DNA of 64,000 nucleotides from Scenedesmus sp. PABB004 (Eukaryota): positions 310,001 to 374,000 of the forward strand of contig JABVCE010000012.1 in assembly GCA_014905635.1 (NCBI GenBank), read 5' to 3'. Position 1 is the stretch's first letter; the number at the start of each line of letters is the position of its first letter. Shown here piece after piece: positions 13,306 through 62,102 of this stretch. The notes under the pieces were generated by a model. The model did not search any database. It saw nothing but the letters and a program-made list of their open reading frames with translations, and had not been told where the DNA came from. Both the position numbers and the translations under genes were made by a program.

Positions 13306-14147
13306 CGTCGATCATCTACTTGGACGGGGACTAGGATTGGGGCGAGGCAGGCTCGAGGCTTGGTGCGTGCGCGGGGCGCTGCCTACAGCGTGTGGTGCGC
13401 GCGTGCGTGGCGAGGGAGAGGGAAAAGGGAAGCTGGCGGCGGCGAGGCGGCGCGTGCTGGCAACCGGCCGACCGCGCACGCAGCGCGCCTGGGCGGGTTG
13501 CCCTCTTGCGCGACCACCCGGCGCTGGCAGCGGTGGCACGTCGCCGCGCCGTGCCCCGCAGCGGCCGCACGCGGGCGGCGGTGCAGGCCCAGGGCGCAGG
13601 CGCCGCCCGGCCGGCTGCCCGCGCCGCCGCCGAGGAGGCCTCCCGCGCGCGCCGCCCCGCCGCCCACAGCCGCCGCCCTCTCAGCGCCCCTGCCGCACAC
13701 ACGCACACACGAGCGCCGGCCGCGGCCCTCACAGCTCCCGCACGCGCCGCGCCGCCGCTGCGCAGCGCCCGCCCCCGCCCGCGGCGCGCCCCTGGCCCGG
13801 CGGGGCGCGGCCGTGCGGGCGCCTGGTGACTGGATCGTGCCGCCCAGCGCAGCGCCAGGCGAGCCGGGCGCGCGGGCGGGGAGGGCGGCAGGCGGGCCGC
13901 GCTGCGCGGCGCCTGCTGCGGGCGGCGGGGGCACCGGCGGTGCGCGGCAGGCGGGCGTGTCGCGTGGACCGGCGGGTCTGCGCGCCTGGAGCGCCGCTTG
14001 CAGGCCTGCCGCCGCGCCGCCGCGCCGGGGCGGGGGCCGGGCGCCGCGCGCTGCTGCTGCTGCGCTCACGCCGCCCGCGCGCTCGCCCGCTGCTGCCGGT
14101 GCCCCGCCTGCTGCTCTCTGGTGACCCGCAGGCTGTCAGGTGGTACT

Positions 14148-15245
14148 ATGTCTGCTGCGCCGGCGGGCAAGCGGCACGCCGGGCCGACCACGCACGCGGG
14201 GGTGGGCGAGGCAGCGGCAGCAGGCGAGACACCGGCTGGGGCAGAGGCGGCGCCGTGGTGGGTCCGCTGGCTGCTGCTATTAGTGCACCCTGGCTGGTGC
14301 TGCCTGGCACGGCACGCGCTGCCCACAAGCCACCACCGCCGGCAGCGCGCGCCGCCTGACAGCTTGCCGCCTGCCCTGCGCGCCCCGCCCCGCGCCGCCA
14401 GCAGTCCGCTGCCAGAGCTGCCGCAGCCCCTCGTGCTCCACGTCCTGAGCCTCCGGCTGCCGGCCCTGCAGGCGTGGGCCGCCAGGCTGGTCTGCAAGGC
14501 GGCGCGCGAGCGCTTCCGCGGCGCCACGGACATCTCGGTGCGCTGCCCCGAGCTGCCGCTGGCGGCGGTGCGGGAGGCCTGGCGGGCGGCGCAGGGTGAA
14601 GGGTGGGAGCAGCAGCGGCGGCTGGCCAACGCGCGCGCGGCGAGCGGCGACGTGGCGGGGCTGGCCTGGCTACACAGCGCCGGCTGCGACATGGGCAGCG
14701 ATGTGGGTTACACAGCCGCATTACACGGCCAGCTCGCCGTGCTGAAGTGGGCGCGCGACGAGGAGCTCAACCTGCGGGGCGTGGGCCGGGCAGCGGCGGA
14801 GCACGGCCAGCTCGCTGTGCTGGAGTGGGCGCGCGGCGAGGGGCTGGACCTGGGGGGCGTGTGCCACGCAGCAGCCGCGAGCGGGCAGCTGGGCGTGCTG
14901 CGCTGGGCGCGCGCGCACACGCCGCCGCTGCCCTGGGGCGACCGGGTGTGCTTCTGCGCTGCGGCGCGCGGCGACCTGGAGGTGCTGCGCTGGGCGCGTG
15001 CCCAGGAGGAGCCCGCGCCGTGGGGCGAGCTCACGTGCGAGGCGGCGGCTCGCTCCGGGCAGCTGGAGGTGCTGCGCTGGCTGCGCGCCAACGGCTGCCC
15101 GTGGTGGCGCCGTGTGTGCGAGCGCGTGGCGGTATGCAATTGCCACGAGGCCGTGGTCGCGTGGATCCGGGCGCAGCCTGACTCGCCGGACGAGGGCGGC
15201 GGGGCGAATCGGCTGTGGTGGGTGGCGGCCTCTGTAGGCTGTTGA
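14148..15245 (+). CDS. F-box-like + ankyrin-like repeat protein (U4), five core repeats
   Basis: ATG 14148, conserved intron, LPELPQPLVLHVLS, extra HGQLAVL repeat. Confidence 0.85.
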   Translation: MSAAPAGKRHAGPTTHAGVGEAAAAGETPAGAEAAPWWVRWLLLLVHPGWCCLARHALPTSHHRRQRAPPDSLPPALRAPPRAASSPLPELPQPLVLHVLSLRLPALQAWAARLVCKAARERFRGATDISVRCPELPLAAVREAWRAAQGEGWEQQRRLANARAASGDVAGLAWLHSAGCDMGSDVGYTAALHGQLAVLKWARDEELNLRGVGRAAAEHGQLAVLEWARGEGLDLGGVCHAAAASGQLGVLRWARAHTPPLPWGDRVCFCAAARGDLEVLRWARAQEEPAPWGELTCEAAARSGQLEVLRWLRANGCPWWRRVCERVAVCNCHEAVVAWIRAQPDSPDEGGGANRLWWVAASVGC

Positions 15246-15559
15246 GTGCGCGCGGTGCGCGCAGAGTTGGCGGGGCGGGCGGCCAGGGAGCGCGCTGGCA
15301 ATCGGCTGACCGCGCGGGCCTCGAGGAGCTCCTCGCGGGGCACGGCCCTTACGCGGGGGGGGGGGGGGGGGCAGCGCAGCGCGCCTGGCAAGTTGCCGTC
15401 GCGCCACGCGCACGTGCCGCGGGCCGCCGCGCGCCGCGCGCCGCTAGCGCCCCACCGCGCCCGCCGCGCCCGCTGCGGCGCGCGCGGGCGCGCCGCCGCC
15501 GCGGCGCGGGCCCGCGCCGCCGGCGACCTGGCCCGGGCCCGGCCCGCGGCGCCGCCGCG

Positions 15560-17148
15560 CGGCGGCGGGGCGCGGTGGTAGGAGCTGCTCCACGCGCCGC
15601 CGTCGCGGGCGTAATAGTCCATTGGATAGTCAGTCGGGTGCTGGGGGCCAGCAGCAGCCGCGCCGGGATTGAGGCCGCCGCCGTCGCCGCGCCCGCCGCC
15701 GGCGTCGCCGGCTGCATCGCCGCCGCCGCCGCCAGCCCCGGGCGCGTCGCCGCTGCCGCCGCCGGCGGGCGCCGCCTCCCACCAGCCCGGCACGCGGCGC
15801 AGCGCGACAAGGGCCTCGTACGGCGTGAGCACGGGCGCGGCAAAGCCCTCGCCCCAGTCGATGGAGAGGCGCGGGCACGCGACCTGCACCCACGCCTCCA
15901 CGCTCGGCATGGCGCCGAGCTTGGCCTGCGTGACCTCACTCAGCAGCACCACCGTCACGCGCCCGCCGCCGCCGCCGCGCCGCTCGGCCAGCGCGGTGCG
16001 CAGCAGCTCAAGCGTGCGCGGGTTACCCTGCCGCCCGAGCGTGCCGAGCACGAGGCCCCAGCGCGACGCGCCCGCCGCGGCGGCGATCGCGGCGCGGCGC
16101 GCCGCGCGCATGCCGGCCTGGTCGTACGTCTCGCGCGTGAGGCGCCGCCCGTAGGGATCATACCTGCGCGCCGCACGACCCGCGGGCGGCGGCGGTGGTA
16201 TGTGTGTGTGCGTGGTGGGGCGGGGCGAGGGAGGGGCAAGGGAGCGCGGCGCGGGCGCTGCAGCCGCGGGGCGCGCGTGCGCGGGCACGCGGGGCCCCGT
16301 GAGTGCGCGCCGTGAGTGCGGGGGCGCGCCTGAAGGCGGGCAGGCGGGGGTTGGCAATCATCATCGCCTCCAGGTGGAACCGCCCGTCGGCGACAAACAC
16401 CAGCGCGTCGGCCGGCTGCGCGCGGCGCGTGCAGCGTCGGAGGTGCGCGCGGGGCGGTGAGGGCGGGGAGGGAGGGCGGGAGGAGGCACGCGGGCCGCGA
16501 GGCGGGCGCGCCGGGGACGCAGCGCGCGGCGCGCGCTGCGCGCCTGCGTGACGACCGGCGCAGTGCAGCCGAGCACCTCGCCCGGCGAGAGCGGGCGGCA
16601 CTTGGGCACGGACAGGCTGGGGTAGTCTGGCGCCAGCCGCGCCCGCGCGAGCTGCACGGCGCTCGAAAACTGGATCGTGCCCGCCAGCACCAGCGCCGGC
16701 GGCTGCTCCTGCGGCTGCTGCTCCTGCTGCTGCAGGTCCGCCGTCAGCAGCTGCTGCTGCTGGTCCGCACACTGCCCCTGTCCCTGCCCCTGCTGCTCCT
16801 GCTGCGCCTGCTGCTGCTCCTGCGCCTCCCCGCCGCCGCCGAGCGCGCCGCCGCCGGCGGCGCCGCCCGCGCGCGGCGGGAACGCGGCGCGCACGCTGTC
16901 CACGAGGTGGTCCACGTCGATCGCGATGTCAACGAAGACGTAGAGGCAGGGAATGACAGTCACGTCGAGCGGGACGAGGCAGGAGTGGCCGTAGTGGACC
17001 AGCAGGTCGGCGCCGAGCGCGGCCGCGGAGAGGTCGTCGACGCAGCACGCGCCAAACGTGACGTCGCCGAGGATGAGCGCGTGCGCCACACCTGGGGGTT
17101 GGTTCGGACACACGGGCATGGGGGAGGGGGGGGGGGCGCGGGTGAGTG

Positions 17149-17187
<39 letters not shown>

Positions 17188-17243: not shown

Positions 17244-17275
<32 letters not shown>

Positions 17276-29595: not shown

Positions 29596-30071
29596 AGTGG
29601 CTCGAGGCAGAGGGCTCAACAGGGCTCAACAACAGGGCTCAACAGGGTTCAAGGGTTCGAGGGCGCGCGCGCGGGGAGAAGGAAAGGTCCTGGGAGGGGG
29701 CGCTGGCAGCGGCGGCGGCGAGGGGCACTGGGCAGGGCGCTGCGGCGGCCAGCGGGGCAGGGGGGGGAGCAGCGGCCGGCCGGCGGGGCAGGGCCGCGAC
29801 GCGGCGCGGAGGGAGCGAGGGGCGGAGCGAGGGAGCTGGGGGCGCGCTGCGCGGCACGGGCGCCCGGCGCGGGCGCTGCTGGACTGAACCCCACACGGCG
29901 GCCGGGCGCAGGGGCGCGTCGCTTTTTCTGGCTCGGGAGCCTCCCGGCCGGCGCGCGCGCGGCGCGCGCTGAGTAAAAACGCTCGCGGAGGGTCCATGTC
30001 ATGGCGCCGTTGCTGGGTGCTGGCGGCGGCGGCACGTCGCCGCGCCGCGCCCACCCGGCAGCGGCGCCACG

Positions 30072-32380
30072 CGGGCGGCGGTGCAGGGCCCAGGGCGCAG
30101 GCGCCGCCCGGCCGGCTGCCTGCGCCGTCGCCGAGGAGGCCCCCCGCGCGCGCCGCCCCGCTGCCCACAGTCGCCGCCCTCTCAGCGCCCCTGCCGCACA
30201 CACGCACACACGAGCGCCGGCCGCGGCCCTCACAGCTCCCGCACGCACCGCGCCGCCGCCGCGCAGCGCCCGCCCCCGCCCGCGGCGCGCCCCTGGCCCG
30301 GCGGGGCGCGGCCGTGCGGGCGCCTGGTGACTGGATCGTGCCGCCCAGCGCAGCGCCAGGCGAGCCGGGCGCGCGGGCGGGGAGGGCGGCAGGCGGGCCG
30401 CGCTGCGCGGCGCCTGCTGCGGGCGGCGGGGGCACCGGCGGTGCGCGGCAGGCGGGCGTGTCGCGTGGACCGGCGGGTCTGCGCGCCTGGAGCGCCGCTT
30501 GCAGGCCTGCCGCCGCGCCGCCGCGCCGGGGCGGGGGCGGGCGCCGCGCGCTGCTGCTGCCGCGCTCACGCCGCCCGCGCGCTCGCGCCCGCTGCTGCCG
30601 GTGCCCCGCCTGCTGCTCACTGGTGGCCCGCAGGCTGTTAGGTGGCACCATGGCGTCTGCGCCGGAGGGCAAGCGGCGCGCCGGGCCGACCACGGGCGCG
30701 CGGGCGGCAGCAGCAGCGGCCGCGGGCGAGGCGCCGTGCAGCGCAGACGCGGCGGCGAGGTGGGTCCGCTGCTGCTGCTGCTGCTGCTGGCGCTCCCTGG
30801 CTGGTGTTGCCTGGCGCGGCACGCGCTGCCCACAAGCCACCACCGCCGGCAGCAGGCGCCGCCTGACCGCCCGCCGCCCGCCCGCCCGCCCCACCGCACC
30901 GCGCCGCGCCGCCAGCAGCCCGCTGCCGGAGCTGCCTGAGCCCCTCGTGCTTCACGTCCTGAGCCTCTGGCCGCCGGCCCTGCAGGCGTGGGCTGCCAAG
31001 CTGGTCTGCAAGGCTGCGTGCGAGCGCTTCCGCGGCGCCACGGTCGTCTCGCTGCGCTGCCCCGAGCTGCCGCTGGCGGCGGTGCAGGAGGCGTGGCGGG
31101 CGGTGCAGGGTGACAAGCGGGTGCAGCAGGGGCAGCGGTGGCAGCTGGCAGGGGCGCGCGCGGCGTGCGGCGACATGGCGGCGCTGGCCTGGCTGCGGGG
31201 CGCCGGCTGCAACATGGGCGGCGTGGGCCGGGCAGCAGCGGAGCACGGCCAGCTCGCCGTGCTGGAGTGCGCGCGCGGCGAGGGGCTGGACCTGGAGTAC
31301 GTGGCCTGGGAAGCAGCATTCGCCGGCCAGCTCGCCGTGCTGGAGTGGGCGCGCGGCGAGGGGCTCGACCCGCAGCTCGTGTGCGAGGGCGCAGCCGAGG
31401 GCGGGCACATGGCGGCGCTGCGCTGGGCGCGCGATCGGACGCCGCCGCTGCCGTGGGCTGGGAAATGGGTGTGCAGGTACGCTGCGCAGCGCGGCGACCT
31501 GGAGATGCTGCGCTGGGCGCGCGCCCAGGACGAGCCCGCGCCGTGGGACGAGGGGGCGTGCGGGGCGGCGGCTCTGCACGGGCAGCTGGAGGCGCTGCGC
31601 TGGCTGCGCGCCAACGGCTGCCCGTGGGAGCGCAGCAACTGCGAGGTCTGCGCAGCACACAACGGCGACCAGTCGGTGGTCGCGTGGATCCGGGCGCAGC
31701 CCGCGTCGCCAGACGACGGCTCTGATTCTGAAGGTTCCGATGATCTAAACTCGGACGCCGACTGAGATCAGGGCGCGGCATGTGGTGTGCGCGTGGCGAG
31801 GGAGAGGGAAGGGAAGTTGGCGGCGGCGAGGCGGCGCGTGCTGGCAACCGGCCGACCGCGCACGCAGCGCACCTCGGCAGTCGCGGTCCTGCGCCGGGCG
31901 CTGGTAGCGGCGGCACGTCGACGCACCGTGCCGTCCCGGCAGCCACGGCACGCAGGCGGCGGTGCAGGGCCAAGGGCCCAGGCGCCGCCCGGCCAGCTGC
32001 CCGCGCCGCCGCCGAGGAGGCCCCCGCGCCGCCCCGCCGCCACACGCAGCTGCCGCCTCAGCGCCCCTGCCACGCACACACACTCGAGCGCCGGCCGCGG
32101 CCCGCAGCGCCCGCACGCACCGCGCCGCCGCCGCGCAGCGCCCGCCCCCGCCCGCGGCGCGCCCCTGGCCAGGCTGGGGTAGACCTGCGGGCGCCTGACG
32201 GCTGGTCTGACCCGCCCAGTGCAGTGCCAGGCGAGCCGGTCGCGCGGGCAGGCGGGAGGGCAGCGGCGGGCGGGCAGCGCTGCGCGGCGCCCGCTGCAGG
32301 CGGCGGGGGCACCGGCGGTGCGCGGCGTAGTGTGTTGGGTGATCACCCGGTCCTGCGCGCCTCGGGCGCCGCTGGCAGGC
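30072..32380 (+). repeat. Head-to-tail pair U5 + leader-only U6
   Basis: Leader ~30072, gene, spacer ~31770-31954, then a second leader that diverges near 32380. Confidence 0.9.
30650..31765 (+). CDS. F-box-like + ankyrin-like repeat protein (U5), five core repeats, ~319 aa spliced
   Basis: ATG 30650, intron 30760-30915, LPELPEPLVLHVLS...LVCK, short acidic tail. Confidence 0.87.
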   Translation: MASAPEGKRRAGPTTGARAAAAAAAGEAPCSADAAARWVRCCCCCCWRSLAGVAWRGTRCPQATTAGSRRRLTARRPPARPTAPRRAASSPLPELPEPLVLHVLSLWPPALQAWAAKLVCKAACERFRGATVVSLRCPELPLAAVQEAWRAVQGDKRVQQGQRWQLAGARAACGDMAALAWLRGAGCNMGGVGRAAAEHGQLAVLECARGEGLDLEYVAWEAAFAGQLAVLEWARGEGLDPQLVCEGAAEGGHMAALRWARDRTPPLPWAGKWVCRYAAQRGDLEMLRWARAQDEPAPWDEGACGAAALHGQLEALRWLRANGCPWERSNCEVCAAHNGDQSVVAWIRAQPASPDDGSDSEGSDDLNSDAD

Positions 32381-32488
32381 TCAGGCCGCCGCTGCTGCCG
32401 CTGCCGGCGGCCGGCCGCCGCTGCTGCCGCTGCCGCCGGGGCGCCGACGCCCGCCGCCCTGCTGCTCGCGCGTGGCCAGGGCCGCGCG

Positions 32489-34917
32489 ATGTTCAAGGTC
32501 ACCGCGCAGGACGGGCTGGCGCGGTGCGGGCAGCTCGCGCTGCGCGGCGGCGGCGCGGCGACGCCGGCGAGCCTGCTCTACACGCGCCGCGGAGGCTGCC
32601 TCTTCCTCTCGCCCGACCTCATGGAGCGCCTGCGCCCCGAGGCGGCGCTGGTGCAGGTCAACGCCATGCAGTTGTGCGCGCGCGGCCCGCGCCGCCGCGG
32701 CACAGCGCGCGCGCGGGGCTCGGCGCGCTGCGCCGCCGCGGCCGGCCGGCCCCCTCCCCTCTCCCTACCTCAGCCCCGCCCGCCGCCGCCCGCGCGGCGC
32801 GGCGCCGCCGTGCAGCATGGCGATGCCCGCGCCGGACGTGCTCGCGGCCGTCGCGGGGGCGCGCGGCGCGGCCGGCTACCTGGGCCTGGCCGGCTGGCCG
32901 CTGCTGCTGACCAACCGCGACGCGACGCTGGCCGAGTACTTTGCCGCCAAGCCCTCCAACAGCGCCGCAGCGGCGGTCACGGTCTCGACCGGCGGCATGA
33001 TGGTGCGGGCGGCGACGGCGCCCCCGGCGCGCGGCGCGGGGCGCGGGGCGGGCGGGACGCGGGAGGACGCGCGGGCGCGTGAGGCGCGGCGCCGGCGGCT
33101 GCGCCGGCACCCCGCGGGCCGGCGGGCGGGCTGAGCCCGCTGCGGGCGGGCGTCCCGGCCGCGGCGCCAGGTGTCGCCCGAGCGCTACATGGCGGCCGTC
33201 GCCGCGCTGGCGCCCGACGTGTACGTCGCGCTCGCTGACGAGGTGCCCGGCGACGCGAGCGCGAAGCGCGTCGCGCAGAGCGTCGACCGCACGGCGCGGG
33301 TGTGCAGCGGCGCGCCGCGCCGCGCGCTGCACGGGGCCGCACCTCGCGTTGGGCGCCGCGCGCGCGCGCGCGCACGCCGAGCGCGCCCCGCCCCGCCCCG
33401 AGCGCAGTGGCTCGACGAGTGCATTCAGCGGCACACGGCCATCCAGCAGCAGGAGCAGCAGGCGCAGCAGGCGCAGCAGGCGCAGCAGGCGCAGCTGGCG
33501 CAGCAGCAGGAGCAGCAGCAGGAGCAGCAGGCGGGCCAGCAGCGGGCGTGCGGCGGCGCCATGTGGGATGGCCCGGAGGCGCAGCTGCTTGCGCCCGTCG
33601 TGGGCGGCGCGCTGCTCGAGGAGCGCGCGCGCTCGGCCAAGGCGGCGGCGGAGCGCGACGTCGCCGGTGCGCGCGCATCGCGCGCGCGTCGCACGCCAGC
33701 AGCAGCAGCAGCGGCGGCGACCCTCTCACGCCCGCGCGCCCGCCCCTAAACCCCAGGCTTTGCTCTGTGCGGCCTCGGCATGGGCGAGGCCGCGTCGGCG
33801 CGGCCGGGCCTCATCCGCGCGGCGTTGCAGCACCTGCCCGACGCCAAGCCCCGCCTCGCCAACGGCCTGGTGCGCGCTGCCCCGCCCCGCGCGCGCTCCT
33901 CGCCGCGCCGCGTCGCCGCCGCCGCCGACCGTCCGGCGACGCTGCGTCCGCTGCGTCCCTGCATCCGCCGACCCTGCATCCGCTGCCGCCCCCGCCGCCG
34001 CCGCCCCCGCCGCCGCCCCCGCCGCCGCCCCGCCCCGGCAGGCGTCGCCGGACGAGGTGCTCGACGCCGTGGCGGCGGGCGTGGACCTTTTTGATGCCAC
34101 ATACCCAACCCACGCCACCGCCAACGGCTACGCGCTCTCGTTCGCCCTCGCCCCGCCGCCCCGCGGCGCCGGCGGCGCGGACGGCGGCGGAGGCGGCGGC
34201 GCGGCGCGGGCGCGGGCGGCGGCGAGCGGCGGCGAGGGCGGCGCCGAGGTGGGCGGCGCCGAGGACGGCGGCGATGACACCAAAATCAACCTGTGGTCGC
34301 TCAAGTACAGGTGCGTGTTTGTGTGTGTGTGTGTGTGGGGGGGGGGGGGGTGCGTGGCTGCGCATGCGCGCGCGTGCGTGAGCGCGCAGCGCGGGCCGCG
34401 CCGCGCCGCCACGACCGCGGCCTAAGCCCTAAATCCTAAATCGCTCGCAGGATGGACAAGGGCCCGCTCGTGCCGGGGTGCCGCTGCTTCACGTGCCGCG
34501 CGCACAGCCGCGCGTACGTGCACCACCTGCTGCAGACGCACGAGATGCTCGGCGGCGTGCTGCTCGAGCTGCACAACACCCACTGGTGGCTCGCCTTTTT
34601 CGCGGCGCTGCGGCAGGCGATCCAGGTGTGTGATCTGCGTGCGTGCATGTGCGTGTGGCGAGGCGCAGGCTGCGCCCGCGCGTCCGGCGAGGTCGAGCTG
34701 TGCGCGCCGCCGCCGGCGCCGACGCGCCGCCGCCGCACCGCCGCCGCCGCGCGCGCAGGAGGGGCGGCTGGGCGAGTATTCCGAGTGGTTCCGGCGGCGC
34801 CGCGCGGCGGCGCAGCAGTGGGAGGCGGCGGCGGCGGCGGAGCCGAACCAGCGGGCCGCCGCGCAGCAGCAGCCGTGGACGCCGCGCGGCGCGCAGGCTG
34901 CCGCCGACAAGGCCTGA
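32489..34917 (+). CDS. QTRT2: Queuine tRNA-ribosyltransferase accessory subunit-like (TGT family)
   Basis: ARCGQL, TPASLLYTRRG, KRVAQSVDRT..WLDEC, GVDLFDATYP, and Zn site CRCFTC...RAYVHHLL...HEML...HN. Confidence 0.85.
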
Positions 34918-35009
34918 CGTGTCGTCCGGCCATGTGCGCCGGCGGTGCTGGGCGGTGCAACGTGCTGTCATCACAGCGAGAGCGCGACCACGCACCCGCC
35001 CGGCGGGCG

Positions 35010-37230
35010 GGGCGGCGGTGCAGGGCCCAGGGCCCAGGCGCCGCCCGGCCGGCTGCCCGCGCCGCCGCCGAGGAGGCCCCCGCGCGCACCGCCCCGCCGC
35101 CCACAGCCGCCGCCCTCTCAGCACCCCTGCCACACGCACACACACGCACGAGCGCCGGCCGCGGCCCTCGCAGTTCCCGCACGCACCGCGCCGCCGCCGC
35201 CCAGCACCCGCCCCCGCCCGCGGCGCGCCCCTGGCCAGGCGGGGCGCGGACCTGCGGGCACCTGGTGACTGGATCGTGCCGCCCAGCGCAGCGCCAGGCG
35301 AGCCGGGCGCGCGGGCGGGGAGGGCGGCGTGCGGGCGGGCGCGCTGCGCGGCGCCCGCTGCGGGCGGCGGGGGCACTGGCGGTGCGCGGTGGGCGGGCGT
35401 GTAGCGTGGATCGGCGGGTATGCGCGCCCCGGGCGCCGCTGGCAGGCCCGCCGCCGCGCCGGGGCGGGGGCGGGCGCGGCGCGCTGCTGCTGCCGCGCTC
35501 ACGCCGCCTGCGCGCTCGCCCGCTGCTGCCGCCGCTCCGCCTGCTGCCCCCTGGTGGTCCGCAGGCTGTGAGGTGGCACCATGGCGTCTGCGCCGGCGGG
35601 CAAGCGGCACGCCGGGCCGACCACGAGCGCGCACGCGGCCGCAGCGGCGGCAGGCGAGGCACTGGCGGGGGCCGAGGCGGCGCCGAGGTGGGCGCGCTGC
35701 TGCTGCTGCTGCTGCTGGTGCCCCCTGGCTGATGCTGCCTGGCGCGGCACGCGCTGCCCACGAGCCACCACCGCCGGCAGCAGGCGCCGCCTGACCGCCC
35801 GCCGCCCGCCCCGCTCGCCCTCGCTCCGCGCCGCCAGCAGCCTGTGGGCGGAGCTGCCTGAGCCCCTCGTGCTTCACGTCCTGAGCTTCCTGCCGCCGGC
35901 CCTGCAGGCGTGGGCAGCCAAGCTGGTCTGCAAGGTGGCGTGCGAGCGCTTCCGCGGCGCCACGGTCGTCTCCCTGCGCTGCCCCGGCCTGCCGCTGGCG
36001 GCGGTGCAGGAGGCCTGGCGGGCGGTGCTTGCTGCCAAGCAGGGTGACAAGTGGCTGAAGCGGCAGCGGGTGACCAAGCGGCAGGAGCAGTGGCAGCGGC
36101 GGGCGGTGAAGCATCACAAGCGGCAGCAGTGGCGGCTGGCCAACGCGCGCGCGGTGTGCGGCGACGTGGCGGGGCTGGTCTGGCTGCGCGGCGCCGGCTG
36201 CGACATGGATGACATGTCTTTGAACGACGGCGTGCGCTACACAGCAGCGCGCGCCGGCCAGATCGCCGTGCTGGAGTGGGCGCGCGGCGAGGGGCTGGAC
36301 CTGCGGTATGTGTGCTACGAAGCAGCGCGCGCCGGCCAGGTCGCCGTGCTGGAGTGGGCGCGCCGCAAGGGGCTGTACCTGGGGCACGTGTGCTGCCATG
36401 GAGCAGCCTCTGGCGGGCAGCTGCATGTGCTGCGCTGGGCGCGCGCGCAGACTCCGCCGGCGCCCTGGGGCGATCGGGTGTGCTCCTGCGCTGCGCAGCG
36501 CGGCGACCTGGAGATGCTGCGCTGGGCGCGCGCGCCCAGGCTGAGCCCGCGCCGTGGGACGAGGAGGCGTGCGAGGCGGCGGCCGGAAACGGGCAGCTGG
36601 AGGCGCTGCGCTGGCTGCGCGCCAACGACTGCCCGTGGGACCGCGCCGCGTGCGAGCGCACGGCGGCCAGGCCGTGGCGTCGCGACGAGGCCATGCTCGC
36701 GTGGATCCAGGCGCAGCCCGAGTGAGGTGTCGGGAGCAGCCTGCGTAAGCTCACTCGAGTGTGTCGGGAGGGCTGGCAAGGAAGCAGGAAGCATCGCGCA
36801 CCGGCCAGCTTGCCGTGCTGGAGCGGGCGCGCGGCAAGGGACGTTGACGTGCGCGGCGTGTGTGCGTTCGGTGGGCAGCTGTCGGCGCAGGCAGGCGCGA
36901 GTGGCGCACGGTCGCGTGGGTCCATGGCCGCCGATGAGTTTTAGGAGGGGGGACGCCGCTTGACTGCCGCTGTCTGCCGCGCCGGTGCGGCGCCCTGTTG
37001 CGCGCTGGTCGGGCTCGGCCGCGTTGGGCCGCCCCGTTGCAACCTCGACCGCGCAAGGACAGAGCCGCGCCCGGCGGCCGTCGAGGCTAGTGTTTTGTCG
37101 CTGCGGCGGAGGCTTGAACGACCTGGCCGCCGCCGCCGCTGTGCTGCACACCGCTGCTCTGCTGCAGACACAGCCGGCTCGCCGCCGCCCCACGCGCACC
37201 GCTGCATGCCCCGCCGCGCGCTGCCGCCGA
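35010..37230 (+). repeat. F-box/ankyrin cassette copy U7 with 3' tail shared with U1
   Basis: Leader starts ~95 bp after the QTRT2 stop. Tail 36726-~37230 matches 1783-~2290. Confidence 0.9.
35581..36725 (+). pseudogene. F-box-like + ankyrin-like gene (U7) with +2 frameshift near 36530
   Basis: Extra CG in a GCGCGC run shifts the last repeat into another frame (real mutation or assembly error). Expanded basic linker KQGDKWLKRQRVTKRQEQW... Confidence 0.7.
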
Positions 37231-37260
37231 CCGCCCGCCGCTCCTTCATGGCCGGCGACC

Positions 37261-39481: not shown

Positions 39482-39648
39482 TCACTCGGGCTGCGCCGTG
39501 ATCCACGCGACCACCGCCTCATGGCCCTTGCGCGCCACCTCGTGCTCGCACGCGCCGCGCTCCCACAGGCAGCCGTTGGCGCGCGGCCAGCGCAGCGCCT
39601 CCAGCTGCCCGGGCGGCGCCTGCGCCCTGGGCCCTGCACCGCCGCCCC
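39482..39648 (-). repeat. Internally deleted cassette U8 (leader start fused to last repeat and stop)
   Basis: Junction ...CTCCAGCTGCCCGG|GCGGCGCCTGCGCCCTGGGCCCTGCACC; spacer motif (GTTGCCAG) at ~39730. Confidence 0.85.
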
Positions 39649-39878
39649 GCGTGGCGCTGCTGCCGGGCGGGCGCCGAAGCGTGTGCGCGCACCACCCAGG
39701 CCGCGTCGGTGCCGTGCGCGTTCAGCCGGTTGCCAGCACCGACGGCCGCTCGCCAGGTCAGATCAGCTTGAACACGGTGCTTTCAAAACACCGGTGCTTC
39801 CAAAACACTGCAGTGATCTCCGGAAGGCGGCTGCCCGTTCAGCTGCAGGCGCCAGCTCCCCCCCCCCCGGCCGTGCGC

Positions 39879-44311: not shown

Positions 44312-45201
44312 GCTCCCCGCCGGCGCCTGGGCCCGCGCCGTGGCGACGGCCCACCCTGTAGGCGCTCACCAGCAGCGCTCGTCGCAGACAGGCTGACGGC
44401 GGGGGCAGTCGCGGGCGGGCGGCGTGAGCGCAGCAGCAGCAGCAGCGGCGCGCCGCGCCCGCCCCCGCCCCGGCGCGGCGGCGCGGCGGCAGGCCTGCCA
44501 GCGGCGCCCGGGGCGCGCAAGCCCAGCATTCCACGCCACACGCCCACCCGCCGCGCACCGCCGGTGCCCCCGCCGCCCGCAGCGGGCGCCGAGCAGCGGC
44601 GCGGCCCGCCCGCCGCCGCTGCCTGCTCACCGCCTGCCCGCGCGCCCGGCTCGCCTGGCGCTGCGCTGGGCGGCACGTGCTAGTCACCAGGCGCCCGCAG
44701 GCCCGCGTCCCGCCTGGCCAGGGGCGCGCCACGGGCGGGGGGCGGGCGCTGGGTGCGGCGCGGTGCGTGCGGGCGCTGTGTGGGCCGCGGCCGGCGCTCG
44801 TGTGTGCGCGTGGCAGGGGGGGGGGGGGGGGGGCTGAGAGCGGCGGCTGTGGGCGGCGGGGCGGCGCGCGCGGGGGCCGTCCTCTGCGGCGGCGAGGGCA
44901 GCCGGCCGGGCGGCGCCTGCGCCCTGGGCCCTGCACCGCCGCCCGCGTGCCGCCGCTGCCGGGCGGGCGCGACGTGCTGCCGTCAGCACAGTGACGGCGC
45001 GGGAGTGCGACCCGCCCAGGTGCACTGCGTGCGCGGTCGGCCGGTTGCCAGCACGCACCGCCTCGCCGCTGCCAGCTTCCCTCTCCCTCTCCCTCGCCAC
45101 GCACGCGCACCATGCCGCAAGCAGCGCCCGCACGCACGCGCGCCCAGCCACGGGCCTGCCTCACCTCGCCCTGATCGTAGTCCGCGTCCGAGCTGTGAAG
45201 G

Positions 45202-46132
45202 TCAGAAATCGCGAGAGTCGTCGTCCAGCGACGCGGGCTGCGCCCGGATCCACGCGACCACGGCCTCGTGGCCACGCATGGCCGCCCAGTTCTCGCACTC
45301 GCGACGCCACCACGGGCAGCCGTTGGCGCGCAGCCAGCGCAGCACCTCCAGGTGCCCGTTCGCGGCCGCCATGCAGCACGCCCTGCAGTCCCACGGCGCG
45401 GGCTCGGCCTGGGCGCGCAGCCAGCGCAGCAGCTCCAGGCCGGGGCAGTGCGCAGCGAAAACACACTCCAGGCCGCCCCAGGGCAGCGGCGGCGTCTGCG
45501 CGCGCGCCCAGCGCAGCACACCCAGCTGCCCGCCCGTGACTGCGTTGGTGCACGCGTCCCACAGGTCCAGCCCGTTGTCGCGCGCCCACTCCAGCACGGC
45601 GACCTGGCCGAGCGCCGCTGCTGCTTCGCACACAGAGTCATCCATGTCGCAGCCGGTGCCGCGCAGCCAGGCCAGCCCCGCCACGTCGCCGCACGCCGCG
45701 CGCGCCTCTGTCAGCCGCCTCTGCTGCTCCCACCCTTCACCCTGCAACGCCCGCCAGGCCTCCTGCACCGCCGCCAGCGGCAGCTCGGGGCAGCGCAGCG
45801 AGACGTCCGTGGCGCCGCGGAAGCGCTCGTACGCTGCCTTGCAGACCAGCTTGGCGGCCCACGCCTGCAGGGCCGGCGGCAGGAAGCTCAGGACGTGGAG
45901 CACGAGCGGCTCGGGCAGCTCTGGCAGCGGGCTGCTGGCAGCGCGGGCGGTGAGCGGCCGGGCGGCATGGGTGGCGTGGCGGGCCGAGGTGCGCGCAGCA
46001 GCCGCTGGTTCATTCGCAGCGCCCCCTGGCCAGGCAGCACCGGCCATGAGACGCCTCGCCACACGCGCACCTCGCCTCTGCGACCTCCGCCAGCATCAGA
46101 CCGCTGAGCGAATGCTCTACCAGCGAGGCCAT
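45202..46132 (-). CDS. F-box-like + ankyrin-like repeat protein (U10), apparently intact
   Basis: MASLVEHSLSGLMLAEVAEA, phase-2 intron (AG|GTGCGC), LPELPEPLVLHVLSFLPP, four core repeats. Confidence 0.85.
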
Positions 46133-46764
46133 GGCGCCACCTGGGGGCCATGCAGGCCACCAGGGAGCAGCAGGCGGGGCGCCGGCCACAGCGGGGCGAG
46201 CGCGCGGGCGGCGTGAGCGCGGCAGCCGCAGCAGCGCGCGGCGCCCGCCCCGGCGCGGCGGCGCGGCAGCGGGCCTGCCAGCGGCGCCAGGGGCGCGCAG
46301 GCCCGGCGTTACACGCGACATGCCCGCCCGCCGCGCACCGCCGGTGCCCCCGCCGCCGCCAGCGGGCGCCGCGCAGTGCTGACCGGCCTCCGCTGCCCTC
46401 CCCGCCTGCCCGCGCGCCCGGCTCGCCTGGCGCTGTGCTGGGCAGCACGACCTAGTCACCAGGCGCCCGCAGGACCGCACTCCGCCTGGCCAGGGGCGCG
46501 CCGCGGGCGGGGGCGGGCGCGGGGCGGCGGCGGTGTGTGCGGGCGGGCGCTGTGAGGGCCGCGGCCGGCGCTTGTGCGTGTGCGTGTGTGTGGCAGGGGC
46601 GATGAGGGCAGCGGCTGTGGGCGGCGGGGCGGCGCGCGCGGGAGGCCTCCTCGGCGGCGGCGCGGGCAGCCGGGCGGCGCCTGCGCCCTGGGCCCTGCAC
46701 CGCCGCTCACCCACCGAGGTCGCTGCAAGCGCCGGCAACGATAGGAGGTTCAACCCCTCCCAGC

Positions 46765-48053
46765 TCACTCGGGCTGATCCCAAATCCACAAAAACACGGC
46801 CCCGTGGCGACCTGCCGATGCTTCCATCATGCAGTCGCCGCGCCGCCAGGGGCAGCCGTTGGCACGCGCCCAGCGCAGCACGTCCAGGTGCCCGAAGCGA
46901 GCCGCGCGCCAGCACACCCACTTGTCCCACGGCGCGGGATCGGCCTGGGCGCGCGCCCAGCGCAGCATCTCCACGTCGCCGCGCGCCGCAGCCTCCCAGC
47001 ACATGCCGCCCCAGGGCAGCGGCGGCGTCTGCGCGCGCGCCCAGCGCAGCACATCCCAGTGCCCACCGTAGGCTGCTCCGCTGCACACGTGCTCCAGGTC
47101 CAGCCCCTGATCTCGCGCCCACTCCAGCACGGCGAGGTGGCCGCGCCGCGCTGCTGCGGAGCCCACACCGCCCATCCAACAGCCGGTGCCGTGCAGCCAG
47201 GCCAGCCCCGCCACGTCGCCGGCCGCCGCGCGCGCCCCCGGCAGCTGCAGCTGCCACCATGCTGGCCAGAACTGTGCCGCCAGCCGCGCCTCCAGGACCG
47301 CCGCCAGCGGCAGCTCGGGGCACCACAGCATGTCATATGACATGGCGCCGCGGAAGCGCTCGCGCGCCGCCTTGCAGACCAGCTTGGCAGTCCACGCCTG
47401 CAGGGACGACGGCAGGAAGCTCAGGACGTGGAGCACGAGCGGCTGTGGCAGCTCTGGCAGCAGGGTGCTGGCGGCACGGGCGGGGCGCGGGCAAGCGGGC
47501 GGGCGGCGGGCGGTCAGGCGGCGCCTGCTGCCGGCGGTGGCGGCTCGTGGGCAGCGCGTGCCGCGCCAGGCAGCACCAGCCAGGGGGCTCCAGCAGCAGC
47601 AGCTGCCCCACGGCAGCACCAGCCAGGGGGCTCCAGCAGCAGCAGCTGCCCCACCTCGGCGCCGCCTCTGCCCCCGCCGGTGCCTCGCCTGCTGCCGCTG
47701 CGGCCGCCGCCCGCGCGCTCGTGGTCGGCCCGGCGTGCCGCTTGCCCCCCGGCGCAGCAGACAAGGCACGGCCTGGGCGCCTGCGGGGCAGCAGGGAGCA
47801 GCGGGCGGGGCATCGGCAGCAGCGGGCGTGAGCGCGCGGGCGGCGTGAGCGCAGCAGCAGCGGTGGCGCCCATCCGACAGCGCGTGCCGCGCCAGGCAGC
47901 ACCGGCCAGGGGTCACCAGCGGCAGCAGCAGCGGACCCACCTCGACGCCGCCTCTGCCCCAGCCGGTGCCTTGTCCGCCGCCACCGCTGCGGCAGCCGCC
48001 CGCGCGCGCGTGGTCGGCCCGGCGTGCCGCTTGACCGCCGGCGCAGCAGACAT
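46765..48053 (-). CDS. F-box-like + ankyrin-like repeat protein (U11), with duplicated exon-1 region
   Basis: ATG 48053. A second exon-1-like segment (ATG changed to TTG) lies at ~47860-47650. Acceptor near 47466; ends WIWDQPE*. Confidence 0.75.
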
Positions 48054-48740
48054 GGCGCCACCTGACAGCCTGCAGGCCACCAGGGAGCAGCAGGCGGGGC
48101 GCCGGCAGCAGCGTGCGAGCGCGCGGGCGGCGTGAGCGCAGCAGCAGCAGCGCGCGGCGCCCGCCCCCGCCCCGGCGCGGCGGCGCGGCGGCGGGCCTGC
48201 CAGCGGGGCCCGAGGCGCGCAGACCCGGCGGCCCACGCCACACGCCCGCCCGCCGCGCATCGCCGCAGCCCCCGCCGCCCCGCAGCGGGCGCCGCGCAGC
48301 GCGGCCCGCCCGCCGTCGCTGCCCTCCCCGCCCGCCCGCGCGCCCGGCTCGCCTGGCGCCGCGCTGGGCGACACGATTTAGACACCAGGCGCCCGCAGGC
48401 CCGCGCCCCGCCTGGCCAGGGGCGCGCCGCAGGCGGGGGCGGGCGCTGGGCGGCGGCGCGGCGCGTGCGGGCGCTGTGAGGGCCGCGGCCGGCGCTCGTG
48501 TGTGTGCGTGTGTGGCAGGGGTGCTGACGGCGGCGGCTGTGGGCGGCGGGGCGGCGCGCGCACAGGGGGCCTCCTCGGCGGCGGCGGGGGCAGCCGGCTG
48601 GGCGGCGCCTGCGCCCTGGGCCTGCACCGCCGCCTGGTGCGGCCGCTGCCGGGCGGGCGCGGCGCCTGGGCCTGGCGGCAGCACGGATGCGTGTGCGCGC
48701 GCACGGCCCACCAAGGCGCTTGCTCGCGGCATGCGCGTCC

Positions 48741-51700
48741 CTATGCCGCCTCGCTGTCGCCGCCCTCGCGCGCGCCGCCCGCCGCGCCGCCGGCCCCCGG
48801 CGCGCCGCCCGCCTCGCGAGGATCACCGCCGCCGCCGGCCGGTGGCGCCGCCGCCGGCAGCACCTTTGCGCTGACGGTCAGCAGCGCGACGCTCGCCTCG
48901 CTGAGCAGGCTGACCGCGCCGACGAAGTCCCCCGCCGCCTCGGCGACCAGCTCGATCGTGAACGCAGCAGCCATGCCCGGCGCGAGCGGCGCGGGCTTGG
49001 CCAGCACCCTGCGGGCGGCGGCGCGCCGCGGGCCGCCGCGTCGAGCGCGGCGGGGCCAAGCGCGGCGGCGCCGGGCGCAGGCCGGGCTCGCGCGCAGCGC
49101 CCCGTCCCCCTGCCCCCTGCCCCCTGCCCCCGCGCCTGAGCGGCAGCTCGGGGCGCCGGATGGTGATGCGCAGCACGTCTGCGCAGCAGCAGGCGGCACG
49201 GTGCGGCGCGTGAGGCCGGGGCAGCGCGCCCCGGCCGGGGCCGCCGCGGCCGCGGCCGCCGGCGCGCACCGGCGGAGCAGTTGAGCACGCGCGCGGTGCG
49301 GTGCACGACCGCGCCCTGCGGCACTGTGCCAAAGTGCAGGTGCGCGGGGCTCAGCGCCAGCTGGCCACCTGCGGCGCACGACGCGCGGTCGGGCGGTGTG
49401 GTGCGAGCCGGGGCGGCCGCGCCGCGCCGCCACGGCGCGGCCCGGCACTCGTTCGTGCCGCCCCCGCGCGGTGCGGCGCGCGCACCCGCTTTGCCGGCGC
49501 GCGCGATCATGCAGGCGCTGGCGGTCTTGGTGGTGCGCAGCGCGGCGCCCTCGCGCGCCAGGTGCGCCTCGTTCGGCGAGACGGGCGCCTGGCTCTGTCG
49601 CGGCGGCGTACGGCGCGCGAGCGGCTCTCGGGCGGCTCGGGCCGCGCTGCGGCGCCGGGGCGTGCGAGCTCGGGCCGGGCGCGCCGCGCCGCGCCGCACC
49701 CTGAGGTACGCCGCCGGCAGGCGCGGCGGCGAGGTGCGGCGCTGGCCGCGCACGTCGAGAGCGCCACGCGCCCGCGCCGGCGCGCCGTCCATGGAGCCAG
49801 CAGCCTCCGCATCCGCCACCTGCGCCTCGCCCGCCTCCTGCGCCTCCCGCGCCGCCTGCAGCCCGGGGCCCTCAGGCTGCGGGCCCTGCGGCGCTGCCGC
49901 GACCGCGGCCGCCGCCGCGGCCGCGCCGGGGCCGCCGAGGCTGGCGGGCCGGCCCGCGTGCATGAGCGGCGCCGGCGCGCAGTGCGGCGAGCCGGCTCGC
50001 CGCGCCGCGCCGCGACGAGGCCGCGCGGGGCTGCCACCGTCGCTCAGCGGCGCGGCGCCGGGCGGCGGGCCCTGCCGCGCGGCGCAGGCGGCGCCGCCGT
50101 CGCCGTCGCCGTCGCCGTTGGCGGCGCGCGCCAGGTAGACCCCGGGCCGCTGCTGCGCGCCTGCGGGGGGCGGCGCGGCGGTGGTGAGGGCGCGGCGGCG
50201 CGTGGCGCTTTGGCGCGTGCGCGGGGCTGCCAGCCCCGCGCGGCCGCGCGTGCACCTCCCCACGCCCGCGGCCGCGGCCGCGGCCGCACCCGGCGACGCG
50301 GGCGCCGGCGGCACCGCGGGCGGCAGCCGCGTGCGCGTGAGGGGTGCGCCGCGGCCGCTGAGCAGCGGGTCGCTCCGCGACGCGGCCAGGCCCTCCTCGG
50401 CGGCAAAGTAGGGCAGCGTGCGCCCCGGCGTGGGGCGCCGCGGTGTGTGGTCGTACGGGCCCACCGCCCGCACCCAGGGCCTGGCGGGGGGAGTGGGGGG
50501 GGGGGGGGAAGTGGCGGCGGAGCGGCGGGGGAGTCGTCAGGCAGCCGAGGGGCGGCCAGGCCCGGCGCCAGCGGCGCGCGACCGCGCTCACTTGCGCGGC
50601 TTGCGCCAGGCCGCCGCGGCCGCGGCCGCCGCGGCTGCCGCCGCCTCCTCGGCCGCGCGCTCCGCGGCAGCGGCCGCGTCCTGCTCCGTGAGCAGCTGCT
50701 CGCGCAGCTCCGCCATCCGGTCAGCTCCGGGGGGTGCCTGGTGGCGCGCCGCCGCTGTGTCGGGGTCCCACCCGCCCTGCTGCTCGCCGGCGCCAGCATC
50801 GCCAGCGGCGGCAGCCGCGGCGAGCAAGCCCGACACCTCGTCCGCGTCCGCGCGCAGCGCCGCGCCGCGCGGGTCCGCCGGCGGCAGCCGCGCCTCCGCC
50901 GCCGCGTCGCGCGCGGCGGCCCAGCTCGCCCAGGCCTCCAGCGCGGCGGCCGCCCGCGCGCGCAGCTCGGGCGTCAGCGCCGGCAGCTCCAGCAGCTCGC
51001 GCACGACCAGCACCTGCGCCGCCGCGCCGCCGCCGCCACCCGGCGGCAGCCGCGTCGCGAACAGGCCCGCGCCGCCCGGCGCGCGCTGCGCTGAGCCCTG
51101 CGGGTCGCTGCAGCAATATGCCGGGCTCAGCGCCGCCACGCGCGGCAGGCGCAGCCCCTGCGCCGCGCTGTGAGCGTGCGGCGTTGCGGGCGCAAACACG
51201 TCGGTGCGGCGCAGGCAGACCAGGCTCGCCGCGCCGTCCACGGCCGCCGGCGCCGCGCCGGTCGGCTCGGCCAGCAGCAGCGGCGCCAGCAACGCGCCGC
51301 GCAGCGTGTGCGCGGCCAGCAGGCAGTGCAGCAGCGCGCCGGGCTCCGCCGCGGCGCCGCCCGGCGCGGGCTGGCGCAGGTGGCGGCGCGCCGGCACCTG
51401 GCCGGGCTCGGCCTCGCCGCCGCCGCCGGGGTCGGCCCCGGCGGCGCGGCAAACGCGGCCAGGCAGGCCGCCACGGCCGCGCCGTCCAGCAGCTCGTACC
51501 CGCCCCCGCCGCTCCCCGGCCGCACCACAAACAGCCGCGGCGCCAGCCCGGGCGCCACGGGCGGCGGCGGACGCGCGGCGGCCGCTGCTGCGGCCGCCGC
51601 CTCGGCGGCCGCGGCCGCGGCCGCCGCCTCGGCAGCCGCAGCCGCCGCCGCCGCGGCCGCCACGGCCTCCCGAGCCGCACGCTCCTCGTCCAGCTTGTCG

Positions 51701-60287: not shown

Positions 60288-60328
60288 GGCGCGGGCGTGC
60301 GCGGTTGCAACTGGCGCGCGCCTGTCCC

Positions 60329-61272
60329 TCACTCGGGCTGCGCCCGGATCCACGCGGCCACGGCCTCGTGGCCACGGCCCGCCGCAGACTCGCACCAGTC
60401 GCGCCGCCAGGGGCAGCCGTTGGCGCGCAGCCAGCGCAGCGCCTCCAGGTGCCCGCGGTCAGCCGCCGCCCAGCACACCCACTCGTCCCACAGAAAGCCG
60501 TTGGCGCGCAGCCAGCGCAGCATCTCCAGGTCGCCAAGCCGCGCAGCGTCGTAGCACACGTGCGTGCCCCACGGCAGCGGCGGCGTCTGCGCGCGCGCCC
60601 AGCGCAGCACCGCCAGCTGCCCGCCCTCGGCTGCTGCGTTGCACACGCCCCCCAGGGCCAGCCCCTCGCCGCGCGCCCACTCCAGCACGGCGAGCTGGCC
60701 GTGCTCCGCTGCTGCCCAGCACACGCTGTCCATGTCGCAGCCGGCGCCGCGCAGCCAGGCCAGCCCCGCCACGTCGCCGCACGCCGCGCGCGCCCCTGCC
60801 AGCTCCCTCTGCTTCTCGTCACCCTGCACCGCCCGCCAGGCCTCCCGCATCGCCGCCAGCGGCAGCTCGGGGCAGCGCAGCGCGACGACCGTCGCGCCGC
60901 GGAAGCGCTCGCGCGACGCCTTGCAGACCAGCTTGGCGGCCCACGCCTGCAGGGCCAGCGGCAGGAAGCTCAGGACGTGGAGCACGAGCGGCTCGGGCAG
61001 CTCCGGCAGCGGGCTGCTGGCGGCGCGGCGCGGTGCGGTGGGGCGGGCGGGCGGGCGGCGGGCGGTCAGGCGGCGCCTGCTGCCGGCGCCAGGCAGCACT
61101 AGCCGGGGGTGCCGCGCCGGGCAGCACTAGCCGGGGGTTGCCAGCAGCAGCAGCAGACCCACCTCTGCGCCGCCTCCGCCCCAGCCGGCGCCTCGCCCGC
61201 CACCGCTGCGGCCGCCCCGCGTGCGCTCGTGGTCGGCCCGGCGCGCCGCTTGACCGCCGGCGCAGCAGACAT
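60329..61272 (-). CDS. F-box-like + ankyrin-like repeat protein (U12), apparently intact
   Basis: ATG 61272, intron AG|GTGGGT. Two terminal-type modules: LRWLRANGFLW and LRWLRANGCPW. Confidence 0.85.
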
Positions 61273-62102
61273 GGTGCCGCCTGACAGTCTGCGGGCCACC
61301 AGGGAGCAGCAGGCAGAGAGCCGCCAGCAGTGGGCGAGCGCGTGGGCAGCGTGAGCGGCAGCAGCAGCGCGCGGCGCCGCGCCCGCCCCGGCGCGGTGGC
61401 GCGGCGGCGGGCCTGCCAGCGACGCCCGGGGCGCGCAGGCCCGGTGGACCACGCGACATGACCGCCCGCCACGCACCGCCGGTGCCCCCGCCGCCCGCGG
61501 TGGGCGCCGCGCAGCGCGGCGCGCTGCTGCTGCCCTCCCCCGCGCGCGCGGCTCGCCTGGCGCTGCGCTGGGCGGCACGGCCTAGTCACCAAGAGCCCGC
61601 AGCGCGTCGCCCCGCCTGGCCAGGGGCGCGCCACGGGCGGGGCCGGGCGCGGGGCGGCGCGGCGCGTGCGTGCGGCGATGTGCGGGCCGCGGCCGGCGCT
61701 CGAGTGTGTGTGCGTGTGGCAGAGGCGCTGAGGGCGGCGGCAGTGTGGGGCGGCGGGGCGGCGCGCATAGGGGGCCTCCTCGGCGGCGGCGCGGGCAGCC
61801 GGCCAGGCGGCGCTCGCTGCGCCCTGGGCCCTGCACCGCCGCCCCCGCGCCGCCGCTGCCGGGACGGCGCGGCGCGTCGACGTGCTGCCGCCGCCAGCGC
61901 CCAGCGACGGCGCGGGAGTGCGACCCGCCCAGGTGCACTGCGCGCGCGGTCGGCCGGTTGCCAGCGCTTGCCGCCCTCGCCGTCGCCAACTTCCCTCCCC
62001 TCTCCCTCGCCACGCACGCGCGCACCACCACGACGCTGGCAGCGCCCCCCGCACACGCACGCGCGCCCAGCCACGGGCCTGCCTCGCCTCGCCCTGGCCG
62101 CG

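Follow-up and report, generated by a model that had tools for sequence, protein, structure and literature searches.

The stretch analysed here, hereafter the window, comprises 64,000 nucleotides of the green alga Scenedesmus sp. PABB004 (assembly GCA_014905635.1, contig JABVCE010000012.1, positions 310,001 to 374,000 of the forward strand) and contains 13 copies, U1 to U13, of one gene-carrying unit, several of which are joined head to tail by the same intergenic spacer. Comparison of the window with itself gave 123 pairs of at least 200 bp (73-90% identity), which correspond to 13 unit copies in 8 arrays with a total length of 20,352 bases, i.e., 31.8% of the window. A full unit consists of a non-coding head of ~0.6 kb, an open reading frame (ORF) of ~1.1 kb, here referred to as the body, and a 3' flank. 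Ten copies have a coding body, two (U6 and U9) consist of a head only, and one (U8) is internally deleted. The units are paralogous protein-coding genes of one lineage-specific F-box-like/ankyrin family.

The spacer and its conserved core

A preliminary description of the window had proposed that one spacer is common to the junctions U3>U4, U5>U6, U10>U9, and U13>U12. This was borne out: the four sequences are homologous from end to end (74-86% identical), and the spacer is the intergenic junction of the family genes. It is composed of a segment S (~135 nt, with a conserved polypurine block), an element C (~65 nt, which holds a 22-nt core), and the start of the next head. All four spacers are located behind genes of type B, namely, those with a reading frame that continues past '...IRAQP' into an acidic tail (U3, U4, U5, U10, and U13); type-A bodies stop at '...QPE*' (U1, U7, U11, and U12, and U8 at the DNA level). 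Besides the four junctions described earlier, there is a fifth that is likewise head to tail, U11>U10 (~46765), and it has neither spacer nor core.

Several words of the spacer recur more often than expected. The sequence GTGGCGAGGGAGAGGG occurs exactly at 13407 (+), 31793 (+), 45085 (-), and 61998 (-), and these four are among 17 matches at up to three mismatches, where 2.37 were expected. A 37-mer around the core was found with at most one mismatch at 13441 (+), 31825 (+), and 45031 (-) (0 expected), the copy in U13>U12 being more diverged. At the same tolerance, CTGGCAACCGG was found at 2302 (+), 7504 (-), 13457 (+), 15295 (+), 31841 (+), 39726 (-), 45041 (-), and 61954 (-), and at an unrelated site, 51985 (-), i.e., nine matches versus 3.62 expected. 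The complete 22-nt core, GCTGGCAAYCGGCYGANCGCGC, has seven matches versus 0.21 expected, a number equalled in none of 100 shuffles; an eighth copy, one base longer, lies behind U2. The shorter form given in the preliminary description, CTGGCAACCGG(C/T)GACC, lacks one base and has no match at up to two mismatches. Its placement of the core was right, as the core trails U1, U2, and U4 and precedes U8, and all eight copies adjoin a unit and lie on the strand of that unit.

The core is a conserved island. When the eight copies were aligned, 20 of the 25 invariant columns fell in one 27-nt stretch, while the flanks of the solo copies were not alignable, and the seven gap-free cores differ by 6 substitutions in 154 positions. 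A core follows seven of the ten bodies, ~50 to 520 nt from the stop codon. Outside the four spacers, element C is found behind U1 (after a 0.5-kb extension), U2, and U4, before the head in U8, and in degenerate form before the head of U11. By eye only, CCAGTTGCAACCGCGCACGC, located 14 nt behind the stop codon of U12 (60290-60328), resembles a core variant that is 8 nt shorter.

In a metagenome collection the core was found at seven loci (51-65% GC), none of which had a family member by tblastn; the one 26-nt blastn match at these loci is the core itself, and on these comparisons the matches are taken as chance. TGTAA is the poly(A) signal of Chlamydomonas. It occurs at five sites in the window versus 2.6 expected, none of them in a spacer or in the trailing 3' flank of any unit; the sites at 14708 and 14721 are inside the coding body of U4 on the opposite strand, and that at 46309 is inside the head of U10 on the strand of the unit.

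The units, spacers, and arrays are as follows, where profile positions refer to a profile that was built from the four junctions and run over the window.

168 to 2346, + strand: U1, solo, with head, frameshifted F-box/ankyrin body (stop ~1780), 0.5-kb 3' extension, and element C
2301 to 2322, + strand: core of U1, in element C, after the 0.5-kb extension at 1783-2288
7460 to 9090, - strand: U2, solo, with head and a body with a diverged 3' part, then partial spacer and core
7504 to 7514, - strand: CTGGCAACCGG in the trail of U2, the core being one base longer; 7573-7460 match positions 177-290 of the spacer profile
11770 to 13305, + strand: U3, intact gene
13306 to 13505, + strand: spacer U3>U4, S with polypurine block at 13407-13433, then C at ~13440-13505, core at 13456-13477
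13506 to 15345, + strand: U4, head to ~14143, ATG at ~14148, intact body, stop codon at 15243-15245
15294 to 15315, + strand: core in the trail of U4, which is short and diverged and faces the 3' end of a diphthamide-synthesis gene
29988 to 31765, + strand: U5, intact gene
31766 to 31885, + strand: spacer U5>U6, without ~54 nt of S, core at 31840-31861
31886 to 32466, + strand: U6, head only, homology to reference position 14094
34952 to 37236, + strand: U7, solo, with frameshifted 3' part and 0.5-kb extension, directly upstream of a TauE-like gene
39484 to 39753, - strand: U8, 270-bp remnant with core (39716-39737), head start, and body end
44411 to 44985, - strand: U9, head only, homology to reference position 14082
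44986 to 45201, - strand: spacer U10>U9, core at 45031-45052
45202 to 46764, - strand: U10, intact gene, head beginning right after the stop codon of U11
46765 to 48770, - strand: U11, intact gene, preceded by a degenerate C without a conserved core (at 48760, matching the profile from position 215 on)
60329 to 61915, - strand: U12, intact gene, ending at its stop codon
61916 to 62146, - strand: spacer U13>U12, core at 61944-61965
62147 to 63915, - strand: U13, intact gene with a long acidic low-complexity tail (~62150-62360)
11770 to 15345, + strand: array U3>U4
29988 to 32466, + strand: array U5>U6
48770 to 44411, - strand: array U11>U10>U9
63915 to 60329, - strand: array U13>U12
Single-unit arrays: U1 and U7 on the + strand, U2 and U8 on the - strand

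The gene family, its neighbours, and the head-only copies

All nine unit proteins compared match Ank_4, seven of them above the Pfam cut-off. Five of the nine have an F-box-like match, each time in the same place near the N-terminus and with a score (15.7-18.1 bits) that does not reach the cut-off of 24.3; several relatives carry precomputed PF12937 or PF00646 assignments. In a database search, 323 relatives were obtained at E<=0.001, among them a Raphidocelis protein with F-box-like and Ank_4 domains as well as proteins of Pandoravirus, Balamuthia, and Capsaspora. The best relatives are proteins of Scenedesmus sp. PABB004 itself, most of them encoded on one 1.24-Mb contig, and several of these are annotated as fusions with neighbour genes (DUF1295, chorismate mutase, RRP36). 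One of the PABB004 proteins, P0006, is the product of U3 (261 of 261 residues by tblastn, 12367-13302, with one in-frame gap of 51 codons).

The ORF is intact in seven of the ten bodies (U3, U4, U5, and U10 to U13); U1 and U7 are frameshifted, and the 3' part of U2 is diverged. In U8, the head start (reference 13553-13617) is fused to the body end (reference 15055-15181) by a deletion of the ~1.4 kb in between, so that the remnant retains, besides the core, ~65 nt from the beginning of the head and ~127 nt from the end of the body. Several units vary in length. U4 has a 78-bp tandem period (2.4 copies, 14724-14913) that amounts to an extra ankyrin repeat, and the distance from the F-box motif to '...QP' is 254-257 residues in U4 and U5 versus 222-228 in the five other intact units compared. 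The acidic C-terminal tail of U13 (62150-62360) consists of Asp/Glu/Gly runs inserted ahead of the spacer, and similar tails are present in the relatives P0004 and P0011. U11 has an internal duplication between head and body (47546-47861 versus 47827-48148, 82% identical). The 0.5-kb 3' extension common to U1 (1783-2288) and U7 (36723-37233) is 86% identical between the two and includes a fragment of another ankyrin repeat; in U1 the core comes next, and U7 ends ~10 nt short of that point.

The head does not code for protein: the lengths of its indels are not divisible by three and its stop codons fall in varying frames, by which a coding exon is ruled out. It is the putative promoter and 5' untranslated region (5'UTR) of the family genes. 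The two head-only copies are located in the promoter/5'UTR place of unrelated genes on the same strand. Between the end of homology in U6 and the start codon (ATG, 32489) of a queuine tRNA-ribosyltransferase-like (TGT-like) gene there are at least 23 bp; the beginning of this frame is weakly similar to the start of the TGT profile (E 0.027, profile positions 2-48), and a further TGT match lies downstream. For U9, the distance to the start codon (ATG, 44311) of a short-chain dehydrogenase (SDR) gene (adh_short positions 2-71, E 2.4e-7) is 100 bp. In the family's own genes, the ATG is located 55-65 nt behind the same head point. Judging from this placement, it looks as if the family head serves as putative promoter and 5'UTR of the TGT-like and SDR genes.

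As the arrays U5>U6 and U10>U9 are organised as head-body-spacer-head, the head might also be regarded as a long terminal repeat (LTR), with the polypurine block as primer tract. Such an LTR-like element would account for the two arrays that are headed at both ends and for a conserved polypurine block upstream of the second head. This block is located ~80 nt from the head and does not adjoin it, however, and no gag, pol, or reverse transcriptase gene was found among the 213 of 325 stop-to-stop ORFs of at least 130 amino acids that were scanned (cut-off E<=1e-4; all 150 ORFs of the first ~28 kb and 63 of the remaining 175, these being long ones outside the units), the internal part being an ordinary F-box/ankyrin gene. 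U1, U2, U4, and U7 have no 3' head. With solo units already contradicting it in this respect, the LTR reading is hardly credible and was rejected.

The arrays are interspersed with genes for a protein kinase, diphthamide synthesis, carbamoyl-phosphate synthase (CPSase), a TGT-like protein, TauE, peptidase S10, and an SDR. The GC content is 73-85% in all 2-kb bins of the window. Between 48700 and 60300 the GC content is 83-85%; frames of ~1,300 codons without a stop are present on both strands of this 11-kb region, which has no Pfam match. Rfam and tRNA scans of the window gave no match. The genome as a whole is described as 39.8 Mb in size, with 78.5% GC and 1.31% repeats (PMC12571836, in part), in agreement with the window. 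Neither the F-box/ankyrin family nor the spacer is described in those portions of the literature that were covered, which included Sphaeropleales/Scenedesmaceae genome papers exclusive of their supplements.

Array edges and the origin of the tandem junction

The preliminary description had regarded the arrays as slices of a permuted repeat unit that start and stop at variable points, as expected from rolling-circle or extrachromosomal circular DNA (eccDNA) amplification. The start of the first unit of each array, read as a position in the junction profile, is as follows.

U11: profile 215
U8: profile 221
U5: profile 272
U1: profile 291
U7: profile 320
U2: profile 326
U13: profile 356
U3: profile 357

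All eight starts fall within 142 nt, i.e., 7.5% of a period of ~1.9 kb (range ~1.76-2.06 kb), and none of the eight arrays begins inside a coding body. If starts were random, such clustering would have a probability of 6e-8 to 2e-7, and none of 200,000 simulations was as tight. The arrays are thus not slices of a permuted unit. Variability was confirmed for the 3' ends only, which are of three classes: after element C (U1 at profile 281, U2 at profile 290, and U4); on or close to the stop codon, or immediately ahead of C (U7, U8, and U12); and at the head/body edge (U6 at reference 14094 and U9 at reference 14082). This combination of a fairly fixed 5' edge and a variable 3' end is not matched by a circle opened at random; directional copying, or trimming to functional edges, would give it.

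Circles that left a tandem array through recombination between its units and were reinserted nearby would fit the same junction at four loci, the solo units of about one period with C at their 3' end (U1 and U2), and the presence of C ahead of the head in U8 and U11. Random opening of these circles, in contrast, predicts permuted starts, and the eight observed starts, none of them inside a body, make eccDNA the least favoured form of the earlier idea and, in our estimation, very unlikely. Two freshwater-metagenome runs contained 5-9% of the words of the window, in contigs of 150-230 nt that were identical or nearly so (e.g., 12520-12746 and 13173-13395); these runs also gave low-complexity 'joints' with sides of 21-23 nt, which are uninformative on structure or circles.

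A directional mechanism would be provided by a non-autonomous, gene-carrying mobile cassette, copied in a Helitron-like rolling-circle or similar manner from a fixed 5' edge to a stop at C. Read-through of C on a tandem donor would then yield the pieces of 1.3 to 2 units. In addition to the fixed starts and varying 3' ends, several observations are consistent with such a cassette: the 3' ends of the solo units U1 and U2 border on solo starts at a single position in the tandem junction, a conserved motif is located close to the 3' end, and copies are found among unrelated genes, with the relatives on the 1.24-Mb contig annotated as DUF1295, chorismate mutase, and RRP36 fusions. Helitrons, as far as they are outlined in PMC5876387 (in part), have a conserved dinucleotide at the left end and a tetranucleotide after a hairpin at the right end, insert between A and T without target duplication, depend on an intact left end but can do without the right one, and give rise to head-to-tail junctions and to arrays in tandem.

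In the alignments, no TC...CTRR ends were found at the four junctions or at the solo edges. No stable hairpin was found at the core, the eight folds lying at z -0.86 to +1.14 relative to shuffles and having no stem in common. Words shared by the two flanks of an array average 7.6 nt versus 7.3 nt across arrays, with no consistent target duplication; the exceptions are U7 with 12 nt, above all 56 cross-array controls (maximum 10), and U2 with 10 nt. The 12-nt direct repeat of U7, GCTGCCGCCGAC, is located upstream of the unit (~34897-34908) and at its 3' end (~37222-37233). The array edges are too ragged for flanking bases to be read at an A|T target, and homopolymer runs near the edges (~4 versus ~2 expected by our own count) were not taken as a signal. 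The preliminary description had suggested a search of the genome for Rep/HUH-helicase (Helitron) genes; neither these nor a transposase, integrase, or reverse transcriptase was found among the scanned ORFs. Further points weigh against a cassette, namely, that its starts are spread over 142 nt and hence not base-precise, that the U11>U10 junction has no C, and that the copies are 15-25% diverged, so that there is no sign of recent cassette activity. Altogether, a mobile cassette appears rather unlikely. If there was one, it may have been of a new type with leaky termination at a ~65-nt element with an invariant 22-nt core, without canonical Helitron ends, in an ultra-GC-rich alga, and with a 0.6-kb head that acted as a portable promoter adopted by the TGT-like and SDR genes; this specific form is regarded as unlikely, too.

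Element C could alternatively be the site of a site-specific recombinase, the units being gene cassettes of the integron type, each with a 3' site. Breakpoints do flank the ~65-nt C, with profile positions 215, 221, and 229 at its left edge and 272-291 at its right edge, and the core is nearly invariant and partly palindromic. Against this, the breakpoints are few and not base-precise, and the scanned ORFs of the window include no recombinase gene. To our knowledge, no system of the integron type exists in eukaryotic nuclear genomes, and this explanation is considered highly improbable.

The units and the spacers are similarly diverged. Identity is 76-98% among heads (reference 13590-14080), 70-85% among bodies (reference 14300-15180), and 74-86% among spacers, i.e., the non-coding head is more conserved across units than the coding body, and the spacers are as diverged as the units themselves. 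Synonymous divergence (dS) of the bodies is 0.11-0.30, and the ratio of nonsynonymous to synonymous divergence (dN/dS) ranges from 0.84 to 1.71 around a median of 1.16. Units that adjoin in one array are not more closely related than units of different arrays, and the trees of heads and bodies are star-like, with six of nine and six of seven inner branches unsupported, respectively. A tract of 278 bp is identical between the heads of U4 (13760-14037) and U5 (30261-30538), which lie 16.5 kb apart and have bodies that are 82.8% identical; the comparison points to a recent gene conversion confined to the non-coding head. A clade of the four downstream heads was rejected with U4 included (p 4e-6), which is due solely to the conversion of the U4 head by that of U5, and was not rejected when U4 was left out (p 0.19). 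A clade of the four upstream bodies was not rejected (p 0.118). Besides being star-like, the trees are blurred by gene conversion.

Homology of the four spacers along their full length suggests a junction that originated a single time before it reached four loci; the pieces U5>U6 and U10>U9, which are longer than one unit (one unit, the spacer, and ~0.58 kb of the following head), imply a donor that was itself in tandem. To this extent the preliminary interpretation is supported; its permuted slices are not, and the rolling-circle or eccDNA reading is weak. The donor may equally have been a chromosomal tandem array, a circle, or a concatemer from a rolling circle, and an extrachromosomal circle is not needed. 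We favour, at a probability of roughly 0.55, the explanation that a single ancestral junction of tandem genes was propagated together with these genes by an old burst of duplication at the DNA level, followed by gene conversion and trimming. The junction would have arisen once, by ordinary unequal exchange in a chromosomal array, and pieces of one to two units would have been copied into nearby intergenic sites in a single burst, for which the dS values, the star-like trees, and the lack of closeness within arrays are cited. Later, heads were converted and frameshifts and deletions occurred, and in a compact genome sequence without a function may have been trimmed, leaving array ends at the edges of functional modules. 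The ends of U6 and U9 before host ATGs, the 1.4-kb internal deletion of U8, and the repeat-poor genome are cited for trimming. Element C may be a cis element of the gene's own 3' flank (e.g., a terminator, an insulator, or a 3'UTR signal), which would explain why it is kept beside solo genes, just as rapid loss of non-functional DNA would explain why array edges coincide with module edges.

Several observations weigh against this explanation, since it does not predict well the clustered starts, the abutting solo ends, or the dispersal among unrelated genes. Random segmental copying of a tandem donor predicts neither a 142-nt cluster of starts nor the lack of partial upstream bodies, and trimming is an ad hoc addition. 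The solo ends (U1 at 281, U2 at 290) meet the earliest starts at C's right edge (U5 at 272, U1 at 291) at one junction point, which is how a discrete element with defined ends would look, and the ends of U6 and U9 are only 12 nt apart. Simple unequal crossing-over is a poor fit because the 13 copies are scattered in 8 separate arrays among about seven unrelated genes and take up 31.8% of the window. The trees neither demonstrate nor rule out a single ancestral pair, and as dN/dS is close to 1, selection on the proteins is not demonstrated. These observations leave a mobile cassette some probability; counted together with all circle-based or site-specific variants, it is given a clear minority.

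Significance and comparison with known systems

If the duplication of an ancestral junction is the true origin, the window clearly illustrates how an F-box/ankyrin family undergoes birth-and-death and concerted evolution, in a genome that is among the most GC-rich and repeat-poor of algae. If a mobile cassette were at work, it would represent a gene-moving mechanism without known termini, for which the 22-nt core would be an experimental handle. Under either explanation, head and core, as short cis elements open to testing, might find use in the engineering of algae.

Helitron arrays resemble the present ones in their head-to-tail junctions, gene-carrying units, and fixed 5' end with leaky 3' end (PMC5876387, in part); they insert without target duplication, and no consistent one was seen here. 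They differ in that neither TC/CTRR termini nor a stable 3' hairpin was found in the window and no Rep/Hel gene among the scanned ORFs; at the ragged edges, no A|T target could be read. Gene amplification via eccDNA likewise gives units of one period, and both ends are joined in tandem copies, but the ends observed here are not permuted and the copies are old and diverged. The ankyrin/F-box families of giant viruses and amoebae include sequence relatives (Pandoravirus, Balamuthia, Capsaspora) and are large paralogous families too; the units described here, in contrast, have a host-like GC content and are located between host genes, and no viral hallmark gene was seen among the scanned ORFs.

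The F-box substrate-receptor families of plants and nematodes, which undergo birth-and-death evolution, resemble the present family in that an F-box-like N-terminus is combined with a repeat domain, the expansion is lineage-specific, copies on the same strand are clustered, intact genes are accompanied by pseudogenes, and dN/dS is near or above 1. Unlike in those families, the partner domain is an ankyrin repeat of the Ank_4 type, the copies are interspersed with unrelated housekeeping genes, the head is better conserved than the body, and all arrays begin at the same edge. Same-strand head-to-tail junctions number five in the window, and four of them share homologous intergenic DNA.

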